Below the pieces are notes generated by a model that saw nothing but the letters and a program-made list of their open reading frames with translations, was not told the origin of the DNA and ran no database searches. Positions 1 through 56,979 of a stretch of DNA of 64,000 nt are shown here, in pieces. This DNA is from Escherichia coli (GTDB taxonomy: Bacteria > Pseudomonadota > Gammaproteobacteria > Enterobacterales > Enterobacteriaceae). The DNA lies in assembly GCF_046105845.1 (NCBI RefSeq), contig NZ_CP151004.1; one strand, given 5' to 3'. The number at the start of each line of letters is the position of its first letter. Within the stretch, counting starts at the first letter, position 1. The translations under genes were made by a program, and so were the position numbers.

Positions 1-1226
<1,226 letters not shown>

Positions 1227-1409
1227 TCACAACCCGAAGATGTTTCTTTCGATTCATCATCGTGTTGCGAAAATTTGAGAGACTCACGAACAACTTTCGT
1301 TGTTCAGTGTTTCAATTTTCAGCTTGATCCAGATTTTTAAAGAGCAAAACTTCGCAGTGAACCTTTGCAGGTACACTCTGAAGTATTTTTTATTTAATCA
1401 CTACAGAGA

Positions 1410-1485
1410 TGGTGGAGCTATGCGGGATCGAACCGCAGACCTCCTGCGTGCAAAGCAGGCGCTCTCCCAGCTGAGCTATAGCCCC
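1410..1485 (-). tRNA. alaT: tRNA-Ala (anticodon UGC), 16S-23S spacer tRNA
   Basis: Reverse complement reads GGGGCTATAGCTCAGCTGGGAGAGCGCCTGCTTTGCACGCAGGAGGTCTGCGGTTCGATCCCGCATAGCTCCACCA, 76 nt with CCA end. Confidence 0.95.
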
Positions 1486-1527
1486 ATAACATGTAGTTAA
1501 AACCTCTTCAAATTTGCGGTGCAAATT

Positions 1528-1604
<77 letters not shown>

Positions 1605-1672
1605 GTAGAGGTTTTACTGCTCATTTTCATCAGACAATCTGTGTGAGCACTGCAAAGTACGCTTCTTTAAGG

Positions 1673-3214
<1,542 letters not shown>

Positions 3215-16688: not shown

Positions 16689-18931
<2,243 letters not shown>

Positions 18932-18944
18932 TTCCGGTCTCCTG

Positions 18945-19700
18945 TCAGAACTTATAACCACGATGCAGCGCCACAACCCCTGCCGTCAGATTGTAGTAGT
19001 CGACACTTTCGAATCCGGCATCCTGCATCATGGCTTTCAGGGTATCCTGATCGGGATGCATACGGATGGATTCTGCCAGATAACGGTAGCTGTCGGCGTC
19101 GTTCGCGACCAATGAGCCAATACGCGGCAGCACATGGAAGGAGTATGCATCATAGGCTTTGCTCAGCGGCTCGATAATTGGCTTCGAGAACTCAAGCACC
19201 AGCAGGCGGCCGCCGGGTTTCAGCACGCGATACATTGAACGCAGTGCTTTATCTTTGTCGGTGACGTTACGCAGACCAAACGAAATGGTGATGCAATCAA
19301 AGGTGTTATCCGGGAACGGCAGCGCCTCAGCGTTCGCTTGAACATACTCAACGTTGCCAATCACACCGATATTACGCAGCTTCTCGCGTCCCATTTTGAG
19401 CATGGATTCATTGATATCAGCAAGGACCACTTTGCCAGTTTCTCCGACCAGGCGGGAGAATTTCGCTGTCAGGTCGCCGGTGCCACCAGCCAGATCCAGC
19501 ACGGTCTGCCCACGGCGTACGCCGCTGCAATCAATCGTGAATCGCTTCCACAAACGATGAATACCGAATGACATCAAATCATTCATGACATCGTATTTTG
19601 ATGCCACGGAATGGAAAACGTGAGCGACCATATCCGCTTTTTGTTCCTTCGCGACGGTCTGAAAACCAAAGTGCGTCGTTTCTTGTGACTTATCCACCAT
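18945..19700 (-). CDS. ubiE: ubiquinone/menaquinone biosynthesis C-methyltransferase
   Basis: 251-aa ORF recognised as UbiE (SAM-dependent methyltransferase). Confidence 0.94.
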
Positions 19701-51529: not shown

Positions 51530-52726
51530 ATGCTAAAAGTGTTATTGCTCTTTGTGTTGCTGATTGCGGGGATAGTGGTTGGCCCGATGATTGCCGGACA
51601 CCAGGGTTACGTGCTGATCCAGACCGACAACTACAATATTGAAACCAGCGTCACTGGCCTGGCGATTATTTTGATTCTGGCAATGGTAGTGCTGTTTGCC
51701 ATTGAGTGGCTACTGCGGCGGATCTTCCGCACAGGCGCACACACCCGTGGGTGGTTTGTCGGACGTAAGCGTCGCCGTGCGCGTAAGCAGACCGAACAGG
51801 CGCTGCTGAAACTAGCGGAAGGCGATTATCAGCAAGTTGAAAAGCTGATGGCGAAAAATGCCGATCACGCGGAACAACCGGTGGTGAACTATTTGCTGGC
51901 TGCCGAAGCCGCGCAACAACGTGGTGATGAAGCACGCGCCAACCAACATCTGGAACGCGCAGCGGAGCTGGCCGGCAATGACACCATTCCGGTAGAAATC
52001 ACCCGTGTACGTCTGCAACTGGCCCGTAATGAAAACCATGCTGCACGCCACGGCGTGGATAAGCTGCTGGAAGTTACGCCACGCCATCCAGAAGTATTAC
52101 GTCTGGCGGAACAGGCGTATATCCGCACAGGTGCATGGAGTTCGCTGCTGGATATCATCCCATCAATGGCGAAAGCCCATGTTGGTGATGAAGAACATCG
52201 TGCAATGCTGGAACAACAGGCATGGATTGGCCTGATGGATCAGGCGCGTGCCGATAACGGTAGCGAAGGTTTGCGTAACTGGTGGAAAAACCAAAGCCGG
52301 AAAACGCGTCATCAGGTGGCGTTGCAGGTGGCAATGGCGGAACATCTTATTGAATGTGACGATCATGATACTGCCCAGCAAATTATCATCGACGGCCTGA
52401 AACGCCAGTATGACGATCGCCTACTGCTGCCGATCCCGCGTCTGAAAACCAATAACCCGGAACAGCTGGAAAAAGTGCTGCGCCAACAGATCAAAAACGT
52501 GGGCGATCGCCCGCTGTTGTGGAGCACACTGGGTCAGTCGCTGATGAAGCACGGAGAATGGCAGGAAGCATCGCTCGCCTTCCGCGCAGCGCTGAAACAA
52601 CGTCCGGACGCCTACGATTACGCATGGCTTGCCGACGCGCTGGACAGACTGCACAAACCAGAAGAAGCTGCAGCGATGCGCCGCGACGGTTTGATGTTAA
52701 CGTTGCAGAACAACCCGCCACAGTAG
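51530..52726 (+). CDS. hemY: HemY, TPR-repeat inner membrane protein of the hem operon
   Basis: 398-aa ORF recognised as HemY; starts 3 bp after hemX stop. Confidence 0.93.
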   Translation: MLKVLLLFVLLIAGIVVGPMIAGHQGYVLIQTDNYNIETSVTGLAIILILAMVVLFAIEWLLRRIFRTGAHTRGWFVGRKRRRARKQTEQALLKLAEGDYQQVEKLMAKNADHAEQPVVNYLLAAEAAQQRGDEARANQHLERAAELAGNDTIPVEITRVRLQLARNENHAARHGVDKLLEVTPRHPEVLRLAEQAYIRTGAWSSLLDIIPSMAKAHVGDEEHRAMLEQQAWIGLMDQARADNGSEGLRNWWKNQSRKTRHQVALQVAMAEHLIECDDHDTAQQIIIDGLKRQYDDRLLLPIPRLKTNNPEQLEKVLRQQIKNVGDRPLLWSTLGQSLMKHGEWQEASLAFRAALKQRPDAYDYAWLADALDRLHKPEEAAAMRRDGLMLTLQNNPPQ

Positions 52727-52736
52727 TTCTTTCTCA

Positions 52737-52758
52737 CCCGGAGGCAAGCACCTCCGGG
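52737..52758 (+). terminator. putative hairpin terminator after hemY
   Basis: CCCGGAGGCAAGCACCTCCGGG stem-loop 10 bp after the hemY stop; weak T-tract (ACCTTTCTG), so efficiency uncertain. Confidence 0.35.
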
Positions 52759-52773
52759 ACCTTTCTGATACAT

Positions 52774-52980
52774 AAAAAAACGCCTGCTCTTATTACGGAG
52801 CAGGCGTTAAAACAGGTCTGTATGACAACAAGTGGGTGCTTCACTCAACGTTGTGTCCATGGTGTCTGATGAGGCATAAGCGACATCTGTCAGTGGACGA
52901 TAAGCACCGTAAACGGCTCTGCGTCATTCCGGAGTTTATGAGGCACTAAGGCGAACATAAGAGATGGAATGAGCATCTAC
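52774..52980 (-). ncRNA. glmZ: GlmZ small regulatory RNA (SraJ/RyiA), activator of glmS translation
   Basis: Minus-strand sequence from GTAGATGCTCATTCCATCTCTTATGTTCGCC... to the terminator hairpin AACGCCTGCTCCGTAATAAGAGCAGGCGTTTTTTT matches GlmZ as I recall it; lies in the hemY-aslA intergenic region where glmZ is known to map. Confidence 0.85.
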
Positions 52981-52986
52981 TCGTTT

Positions 52987-52992
52987 ATTATG
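52987..52992 (-). promoter_or_regulatory. candidate -10 element of glmZ promoter
   Basis: Reverse complement CATAAT sits 7-12 nt upstream of the GlmZ 5' end. Confidence 0.35.
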
Positions 52993-53404
52993 CCACAGAG
53001 AACCGGGAAATAACATCCCTTAACACTTGTTATGAGATAATTCTGTAATCCTCTTTGCTTCCTGAGTAATAACTTCCTGAGTGAATATTTCTCCTGCGCA
53101 CGATTCTACACATATATATAATGAATAATAAAAGTCATTCAATTAATAACATATATATTAATTGCCGTTAAAACTAAAAACAGCATCAATAATCAACGCG
53201 ATATAACATCACCGCCTTACATATCACCTGCGCCAGAGGTAGGATTGAAAACGCTCTCCTGATTTTCCAATTCATTTTCTGGATAAATAAATAATTTATT
53301 TTTATCACTATTATTTATGCAATCATCCTGTCAGGGAGAGGGATCTCAATTATCAATGCTTAATTACGTCAACATTTTGACGACATGAAACCGGAGCATT
53401 TTGC

Positions 53405-55060
53405 ATGGAATTTTCGTTTTCACCCAAACTTCTTGTTGTGGCTGTCGCCGCCGCTCTTCCACTCATGGCCAACGCAGCAGATACCCCGTCAACCGCCACC
53501 GCACGCAAAGGCTTTGCCGGATACGATCACCCAAACCAGTATCTGGTTAAACCGGCGACCACTATTGCCGACAACATGATGCCGGTGATGCAGCATCCTG
53601 CACAAGACAAAGAAACCCAGCAGAAGCTGGCAGAACTTGAGAAAAAAACCGGTAAGAAACCGAACGTGGTTGTTTTCTTGCTGGATGATGTGGGCTGGAT
53701 GGATGTTGGCTTTAACGGCGGCGGCGTGGCGGTGGGTAACCCTACACCAGATATCGACGCCGTTGCCAGCCAGGGGCTGATTTTAACTTCGGCGTATTCT
53801 CAACCGAGTTCTTCCCCAACCCGCGCCACGATTCTTACCGGGCAATACTCCATCCACCACGGCATTCTGATGCCGCCAATGTACGGGCAACCGGGCGGTC
53901 TGCAAGGGTTAACCACTCTGCCGCAGTTGCTGCACGATCAGGGCTACGTCACTCAGGCCATCGGGAAATGGCATATGGGGGAAAACAAAGAGTCGCAGCC
54001 GCAGAACGTTGGCTTTGATGATTTCCGCGGTTTTAACTCGGTATCCGATATGTATACCGAATGGCGTGATGTTCACGTCAACCCGGAAGTCGCCCTGAGC
54101 CCGGATCGTTCTGAATACATCCAAAAACTGCCGTTCAGCAAAGATGACGTTCATGCCGTGCGCGGCGGTGAACAGGAAGCCATTGCCGACATTACGCCGA
54201 AATATATGGAAGACCTGGATCAACGCTGGATGGAATATGGCGTTAAGTTCCTCGACAAGATGGCGAAGAGCGATAAGCCTTTCTTCCTCTACTACGGCAC
54301 TCGCGGCTGTCACTTCGATAACTACCCAAATGCGAAATATGCGGGTAGCTCTCCGGCGCGCACCTCTTACGGCGACTGCATGGTGGAGATGAACGATATC
54401 TTCGCCAATCTGTATAAAGCACTGGAGAAAAACGGTCAGCTTGATAACACGCTGATTGTGTTCACCTCTGATAACGGTCCGGAAGCCGAAGTTCCGCCGC
54501 ACGGTCGCACACCGTTCCGCGGTGCGAAAGGTTCTACATGGGAAGGCGGCGTTCGTGTGCCAACCTTCGTTTACTGGAAAGGCATGATCCAACCGCGTAA
54601 ATCTGACGGTATTGTCGATCTGGCGGATCTCTTCCCAACCGCGCTGGATCTGGCGGGGCATCCTGGAGCGAAAGTGGCGAATTTAGTGCCGAAAACCACC
54701 TTTATCGATGGTGTGGACCAGACATCCTTCTTCCTGGGAACAAATGGTCAGTCTAACCGTAAGGCCGAGCACTACTTCCTCAACGGCAAACTTTCTGCTG
54801 TGCGTATGGATGAGTTCAAGTATCACGTCCTGATCCAGCAACCGTACGCGTATACCCAGAGCGGGTATCAGGGTGGATTCACCGGTACAGTAATGCAAAC
54901 GGCGGGATCGTCGGTGTTTAACCTGTACACCGATCCGCAGGAAAGCGACTCCATCGGCGTGCGCCATATCCCAATGGGTGTACCGCTACAGACCGAAATG
55001 CATGCGTATATGGAGATCCTGAAAAAATATCCACCACGCGCGCAGATTAAATCTGATTAA
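53405..55060 (+). CDS. aslA: arylsulfatase-family sulfatase AslA
   Basis: 551-aa ORF with signal peptide and sulfatase signature ([19 protein letters not shown]-x-P-x-R type motif), recognised as AslA. Confidence 0.93.
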
Positions 55061-56542: not shown

Positions 56543-56619
56543 TGGTCGGCGAGAGAGGATTCGAACCTCCGACCCACTGGTCCCAAACCAGTTGCGCTAC
56601 CAAGCTGCGCTACTCGCCG
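56543..56619 (-). tRNA. proM: tRNA-Pro (anticodon UGG)
   Basis: Reverse complement CGGCGAGTAGCGCAGCTTGGTAGCGCAACTGGTTTGGGACCAGTGGGTCGGAGGTTCGAATCCTCTCTCGCCGACCA. Confidence 0.93.
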
Positions 56620-56661
56620 AAATACTGCTTTTTGAATTTTTAGTTCAATTCTTTAAAGTCG

Positions 56662-56748
56662 TGGTGCGAGGGGGGGGACTTGAACCCCCACGTCCGTAAG
56701 GACACTAACACCTGAAGCTAGCGCGTCTACCAATTCCGCCACCTTCGC
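56662..56748 (-). tRNA. leuT: tRNA-Leu (anticodon CAG)
   Basis: Reverse complement GCGAAGGTGGCGGAATTGGTAGACGCGCTAGCTTCAGGTGTTAGTGTCCTTACGGACGTGGGGGTTCAAGTCCCCCCCCTCGCACCA, 87 nt class II tRNA. Confidence 0.93.
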
Positions 56749-56768
56749 ATTGTCACAACTTCTAATAA

Positions 56769-56845
56769 TGGGGTGGCTAATGGGATTCGAACCCACGACA
56801 ACTGGAATCACAATCCAGGGCTCTACCAACTGAGCTATAGCCACC
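56769..56845 (-). tRNA. hisR: tRNA-His (anticodon GUG)
   Basis: Reverse complement GGTGGCTATAGCTCAGTTGGTAGAGCCCTGGATTGTGATTCCAGTTGTCGTGGGTTCGAATCCCATTAGCCACCCCA, includes the extra 5' G typical of tRNA-His. Confidence 0.93.
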
Positions 56846-56902
56846 ACTACAAATCTTGTTACGCGGTATTACTACCACCGCAGCTCAAGCGCCGGGACTA
56901 AA

Positions 56903-56979
<77 letters not shown>

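Follow-up and report, generated by a model that had tools for sequence, protein, structure and literature searches.

The glmZ small RNA gene in the hemY-aslA spacer of Escherichia coli

The locus described here lies within a 64,000-nucleotide stretch of Escherichia coli DNA (NCBI RefSeq assembly GCF_046105845.1, contig NZ_CP151004.1), the whole of which is referred to as the window. The genes hemY and aslA are separated by a spacer of 678 bp, on the minus strand of which the gene for the small RNA GlmZ was identified, in opposite orientation to the adjoining hemCDXY operon and with aslA on its upstream side. The location of glmZ beside hemCDXY, to which it runs antiparallel, is conserved, and the region on its upstream side is variable (PMC3045617). 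The features of the locus are as follows, with nucleotides (nt) of the RNA numbered from its 5' end.

51530..52726, plus strand: hemY, named from identical RefSeq records
52774..52778, minus strand: U-tail (nt 203-207) and 3' end of the primary transcript; all 83 homologues keep the T-run unchanged
52779..52808, minus strand: stem-loop III, the intrinsic terminator (nt 173-202), an 11-bp stem with arms 100% complementary and an 8-nt loop
52809..52834, minus strand: single-stranded linker (nt 147-172) with the glmS-pairing site and, at about nt 152/153 (window about 52828-52829), the position cut by RNase E, placed by duplex scan and from the literature
52835..52908, minus strand: stem-loop II, central (nt 73-146), the RapZ/RNase E recognition element, placed by the pairing of helices 5-7 and from PMC9841335
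52916..52980, minus strand: stem-loop I (nt 1-65), from the Rfam consensus structure and the MFE fold
52980, minus strand: transcription start (+1, G), first position of the Rfam model, the start site being taken from the K-12 literature
52987..52995, minus strand: TGG of the extended -10 (TGn, -15 to -13, 52995..52993) and the -10 hexamer CATAAT (-12 to -7, 52992..52987)
53011..53016, minus strand: -35 hexamer ATGTTA (-36 to -31), from the sequence and the published string
53405..55060, plus strand: aslA, named from identical RefSeq records

Comparison of the whole window to Rfam 15 using cmscan showed a match to the GlmZ_SraJ family (RF00083) at 52774..52980 on the minus strand, covering model positions 1-214 of 214 with a score of 218.4 bits, 3.6 times the gathering score of 60 (E-value of 3.4e-56 for the whole window). 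The GlmZ covariance model was the check put forward with the original prediction of a minus-strand GlmZ gene between hemY and aslA, and its full-length match falls on exactly the positions predicted, well outside what chance would give. A local, more permissive Rfam search returned the same match (E-value of 4.2e-58) and no other notable match at the locus; sub-gathering matches to ncr1175, SNORA68 and Thr_leader (E-values of 0.2-0.9), consisting of the terminator hairpin only, were ignored. Read from 52980 to 52774, the minus strand is GTAGATGCTCATTCC...GAGCAGGCGTTTTTTT, and base-by-base alignment showed all 207 nt to be 100% identical to glmZ of K-12 MG1655 (b4456), which is annotated as an ncRNA in the same spacer of that strain. 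The extent of 207 nt agrees with both Rfam and the literature, while the K-12 RefSeq feature (NC_000913.3, 3986432..3986603) is only 172 nt long, its end falling immediately ahead of the terminator hairpin. It is practically certain that minus-strand positions 52774..52980 are E. coli glmZ (sraJ, ryiA; K-12 b4456) with its known GlmZ mechanism, and no evidence contradicting this assignment was found in the analysis.

A paralogue of GlmZ is a potential source of confusion. GlmY (SroF/Tke1) has common sequence and structure with GlmZ, including homologous stem-loops I and II and the binding of RapZ, and is placed in the same Rfam clan (CL00011); moreover, one weaker overlapping match from this clan was dropped by cmscan at the glmZ site. 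Were the window RNA GlmY or a GlmY-like copy, it would be a paralogous decoy acting by sequestration of RapZ and not by pairing with glmS. GlmZ was found to be the top-scoring member of the clan, however, with full coverage of its model, and the linker complementary to glmS, which is missing from GlmY, is present in the window RNA. The genomic context differs also, with glmY always situated upstream of glrK-yfhG-glrR and the window RNA adjoining hemCDXY; neither the glrK-yfhG-glrR context nor the lack of a pairing site expected of GlmY_tke1 was found here, where hemY and aslA flank the RNA and the pairing site is in place. Identity over the entire RNA to K-12 glmZ, together with synteny, already refutes a GlmY assignment, which is considered extremely improbable.

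Upstream of the glmZ 5' end, the original prediction had noted a CATAAT resembling a -10 hexamer. This was located at 52992..52987, that is at -12 to -7 relative to the G at 52980, and corresponds to the -10 that experiments have validated for the E. coli glmZ sigma-70 promoter (PMC3045617). Two further elements that had gone unmentioned, the -35 hexamer ATGTTA and the TGn of an extended -10, complete the promoter, which matches the published string ATGTTA-N15-tggCATAAT exactly and has a spacing of 18 nt between the -35 and -10 hexamers. In Escherichia this string has been described as a single constitutive sigma-70 promoter by means of 5' deletion and point mutation; expression in K-12 was drastically lowered by mutating the -35 and lost altogether when the -10 was mutated in its right half, and sequence upstream of -40 was dispensable (PMC3045617). 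The ATGTTA hexamer is kept in all Escherichia loci compared. With only three of the six consensus positions matched by its -35, this promoter escaped a generic sigma-70 scan, and the negative result of that tool is therefore uninformative here.

Motifs for GlrR, IHF and sigma-54 are reported to be absent from the glmZ promoter of Escherichia (PMC3045617). In agreement with this, no GlrR-type site (TGTCN10GACA, allowing at most one mismatch) was found in 52981..53404, and a sigma-54 core (TGGCAC-N5-TTGCW) could not be fitted, with at least five of 11 positions mismatched in every register. One base of the promoter spacer, at -23 (window 53003), is G in the window and A in K-12. The possibility that this G allele creates the GG...GC dinucleotides of a sigma-54 promoter was considered and rejected, as no register contains both dinucleotides and their spacing is off by one.

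A tandem direct repeat of 15 nt (CTTCCTGAGTAATAA / CTTCCTGAGTGAATA) was observed at 53058..53087 in the spacer between aslA and glmZ, identical in K-12. On the glmZ strand it reads as ACTCAGGAAG twice, at -78 to -107 of glmZ. Since published deletions show that glmZ can dispense with sequence beyond -40, the repeat may have a putative role in the regulation of aslA.

Homologues of the RNA were collected with one DNA-pattern scan of a species-representative genome collection, giving 102 loci, 92 of which could be delimited by the 5' end, the pairing site and the T-run. The motif GTAGAT(G/A)CTCATTC was found to start all 92 at +1. The structure was scored over 83 distinct homologues from approximately 20 enterobacterial genera, with the Rfam consensus projected through the row of the window. 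Standard pairs were formed in 89.0% of cells in the Rfam register, versus 32-39% when partners were slid by one to three columns; with the MFE register used for the apex of stem-loop I, 94.8% of cells were paired, with slid controls at 32-42% overall. Compensatory changes were identified at 10-11 pairs, and the resulting covariation score was reached by none of 500 column shuffles. The window RNA itself folds at -60.8 kcal/mol, versus -46.9 +/- 4.2 kcal/mol for dinucleotide shuffles (z = -3.3). Many of the structural pairs are invariant and hence carry no information on structure. Likewise, invariance at nt 132-140, 152-158 and 163-167 does not count as independent evidence, because the pattern used in the scan forces conservation of these positions.

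The three stem-loops contribute unequally to this result. Most of the covariation derives from the terminator, whose arms (AACGCCTGCTC / GAGCAGGCGTT) form a perfect 11-bp stem followed by the T-run; 96% of its cells are paired across the homologues and eight of its 11 pairs show compensatory changes. Stem-loop II is nearly invariant, with helices 5-7 paired in 98-100% of cells and one swap between UA and CG in nine sequences. The basal helices of stem-loop I are 90-100% paired across the 83 homologues. At the apex of stem-loop I, the Rfam register is 25-62% paired and the MFE register 97% paired, and neither register is proven, since the former is poorly paired and the latter is almost invariant. 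Taken across genera, conservation and covariation support the three predicted stem-loops (I, II and the terminator III). The RNA had been predicted to run from its 5' end through a terminator hairpin and U-tail, and these were found at 52980, 52779..52808 and 52774..52778, respectively.

With respect to coding potential, only spurious short frames had been noted at the locus, and this was borne out, the overlapping ORFs being of 36, 37 and 51 amino acids with an additional out-of-frame GTG frame of 116 amino acids that extends out of the hemY end. That the locus is a small-protein gene with an incidental match to an RNA family would have to rely on such frames, among them two of 28 amino acids in the sense orientation, which are the longest of that orientation, and one of 37 amino acids in antisense. 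The frame that opens with the AUG at nt 5 varies in length across the 83 homologues because of indels, from 9 to 69 amino acids, and its AUG lacks a Shine-Dalgarno context, as just 4 nt separate it from the 5' end. The three codon positions have similar numbers of variable columns (10/13/12) and thus show no third-position excess, whereas conservation tracks base-paired helices with compensatory changes. No coding signature was detected in any reading frame of the 83 homologues. A protein-coding origin for the conservation of this locus is thought very improbable, and the reading of the locus as the RNA gene glmZ is retained.

Within E. coli, homologous sequence was found in 5425 of 5426 complete genomes, and for the 207-nt RNA alone 5424 of the 5426 show an identity of 99% or more. 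A 771-bp piece that includes the flanks is just 95-99% identical in 4336 genomes, and the RNA is thus under stronger constraint than its surroundings. The spacer and flanks of the window are 100% identical to those of several E. coli chromosomes, such as that of strain ST2747. Compared to K-12, the 207 nt, the -35 ATGTTA, the TGG, the -10 CATAAT, the terminator and the position between aslA and hemY are all the same. Besides the base at -23, approximately 20 substitutions occur in the aslA-proximal spacer and three downstream of the terminator, with none in the RNA or the promoter hexamers. Most of the substitutions that distinguish the 678-bp spacer from that of K-12 fall in an AT-rich stretch at 53090..53215, between the glmZ promoter and aslA.

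These data also bear on whether the sequence could be a non-functional spacer, or the terminator region of hemCDXY, conserved merely by linkage. The 3' end of the RNA is just 47 nt from the stop codon of hemY, and a separate GC-rich hairpin at 52737..52758 lies between the two, both of which would suit such an explanation. On the other hand, conservation within E. coli is markedly higher in the 207 nt than in the remaining spacer, recognisable homologues with compensatory pair changes extend from Escherichia as far as Pectobacterium and Brenneria, and the locus has its own validated promoter. The terminator at 52779..52808 serves glmZ and not hemY, as the T-run follows the hairpin on the minus strand only. 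Passive conservation is already contradicted by the covariation across genera and by published genetics, and it was given next to no weight, leaving glmZ as the preferred assignment.

The separate hairpin (CCCGGAGG-TGCTTG-CCTCCGGG), which is situated between the hemY stop (52726) and the glmZ 3' end (52774), is probably the terminator of the hemCDXY operon. It was not called by the terminator scan because of the weak T-run on the plus strand.

The pairing of GlmZ with its target was investigated using the glmS leader of K-12, since glmS lies outside of the window; of 5426 E. coli genomes, 5424 contain this leader. Using sliding windows of 24 nt, the best duplex was obtained between GlmZ nt 146-169 and glmS -41 to -22, at -20.9 kcal/mol, with non-overlapping windows of GlmZ being weaker (mean of -11.6 and best of -16.2 kcal/mol). 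As 14 of 60 shuffled GlmZ sequences had an equal or better best-window energy, the duplex energy is not significant alone. The best complementarity coincides with the published site, a stretch of 15 nt between stem-loops II and III that pairs with glmS -41 to -19 and for which compensatory mutations have been published (PMC4152352), which fits the mechanism without proving it. An unrestricted RNAduplex comparison of the entire 207-nt RNA to the 211-nt leader produced a meaningless full-length duplex, bettered by 279 of 300 shuffles, and was discarded in favour of local windows.

Much is established on the K-12 RNA to which the window RNA is identical. The primary transcript is 207 nt and the processed form approximately 151 nt; Hfq is required for the action of GlmZ, and RapZ binds to it (PMC4152352). 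The central stem-loop ends at nt 146, with RNase E cutting 6-7 nt downstream irrespective of sequence (PMC6602413). Cryo-EM of the identical K-12 RNA has described a RapZ tetramer that grips stem-loops I and II and offers the linker to RNase E, with stem-loop I bound by one dimer of the RapZ C-terminal domain and RNase E recognition decided by stem-loop II (PMC9841335). The boundaries mapped for stem-loop II (nt 73-146) and the linker (nt 147-172) in the window agree with those published.

By analogy with this identical RNA, we infer that the window gene would be expressed and processed in the same manner. Transcription would start from the G at 52980 on the minus strand, driven by the constitutive sigma-70 promoter (ATGTTA-18 nt-CATAAT with TGn). 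With the intrinsic terminator ending transcription at 52774, the product would be an RNA of 207 nt that folds into three stem-loops. Under scarcity of glucosamine-6-phosphate, the linker of full-length GlmZ would pair with the glmS leader with the aid of Hfq, opening a hairpin that hides the ribosome-binding site, such that GlmS, an enzyme of cell-wall precursor synthesis, would be made. When glucosamine-6-phosphate is plentiful, the adaptor RapZ would bind stem-loops I and II and present the linker to RNase E, with the resulting cut approximately 6-7 nt past stem-loop II removing the pairing site. The homologous decoy GlmY would counteract this cleavage by sequestering RapZ. The physiological role of GlmZ in this strain is likewise expected to be that known from K-12.

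Control of glmZ transcription is known to differ among the enterobacteria. The glmZ of the Salmonella, Enterobacter, Citrobacter, Yersinia and Pectobacterium type belongs to the same RNA family as that of the window and shares its 5' end, three stem-loops, glmS-pairing linker and hemCDXY neighbourhood. Those genes are controlled by sigma-54 and GlrR, having a core of TGGCAC-N5-TGTGCA (-27 to -12) and two to four upstream TGTCN10GACA sites, whereas the window has neither and relies on sigma-70 only. A sigma-70-only glmZ promoter has been published for Escherichia and Klebsiella (PMC3045617).

The 102 loci of the scan include the genera Escherichia, Salmonella, Citrobacter, Enterobacter, Klebsiella, Raoultella, Pectobacterium, Brenneria and Franconibacter, among others, and 88 of the delimitable ones had sufficient upstream sequence for their promoters to be classed. 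A canonical sigma-54 core at -27 to -12 with at least two GlrR-like sites was found in 58 of the 88. Neither the core nor GlrR sites were found in 19, which include every Escherichia locus as well as Klebsiella and Raoultella loci. The remaining loci possess the sigma-54 core without GlrR sites (eight) or GlrR-like sites without the core (three). As judged from these motifs, the survey independently reproduces the published grouping and places the window in the sigma-70-only group.

Genes for glmZ that lack GlrR-like sites, some of them lacking the sigma-54 core too, were observed at eight loci of Citrobacter, two of Superficieibacter and two of Pseudocitrobacter. Alignment between the promoter groups remains possible from about -17 to +1. 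A tentative suggestion, held with somewhat less than even confidence, is that the Escherichia promoter may retain an ancestral core from about -17 to +1 (TGTG-NN-ATAAT and the start), with the upstream sequence, including the -24 element and the GlrR sites, having been replaced, and that similar losses of sigma-54/GlrR control possibly extend beyond the Escherichia/Klebsiella group described in 2010, with several Citrobacter, Superficieibacter and Pseudocitrobacter loci as candidates. This survey of promoter types is only a mildly new by-product that concerns other genomes and not the window.

Other RNA genes were identified elsewhere in the window. A full-length match to the Rfam family 'Erse' (RF02757) was found at 18326..18577 on the minus strand, scoring 319.5 bits (gathering score, 138), and corresponds to the K-12 ncRNA esrE (b4707). 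It lies wholly within the 3' end of the ubiJ frame (ORF 18326..18976, minus strand), ending at the ubiJ stop codon. The window begins within an rRNA operon, of which positions 1..3214 (minus strand) hold the 16S gene, two tRNAs and the 5' part of the 23S gene, with a StyR-44 match at 1234..1342 (minus strand) just upstream of the 23S match. A cluster of four tRNAs was found at 56546..56979 (minus strand), downstream of aslB. From their positions relative to glmZ, the rRNA operon is presumably rrnA of K-12 and the tRNA cluster argX-hisR-leuT-proM.

Annotation of the glmZ locus was examined in 25 RefSeq records sampled across the ranking of E. coli matches, in 22 of which no feature was present under the match, with a hypothetical protein present in the other three. 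The gene had been predicted to be invisible to ORF-based annotation, and a PGAP record 100% identical to the window indeed carries no feature between aslA and hemY. That 'hypothetical protein' represents a miscall over glmZ was considered and rejected in the one record inspected, in which it is a separate downstream gene of 196 amino acids that is absent from the window. In this record, of strain CUVET20-PYO1 (NZ_CP115390.1; locus 806..1396), the hypothetical protein gene (WP_001260226.1) lies directly downstream of glmZ with an overlap of 2 nt. The hemY-proximal spacer of the window sits where this gene lies in some E. coli strains. The missing glmZ features in RefSeq/PGAP records look like a systematic annotation gap.

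The glmZ of the window is an already known gene, found at its established location and with the promoter type known for Escherichia, and the RNA itself offers no novelty. GlmZ is a well-characterized regulator of cell-envelope precursor synthesis, to the biology of which nothing new is added here. The practical value of the finding is for annotation, as a scan based on ORFs or on standard annotation would see the 678-bp spacer between hemY and aslA as empty.
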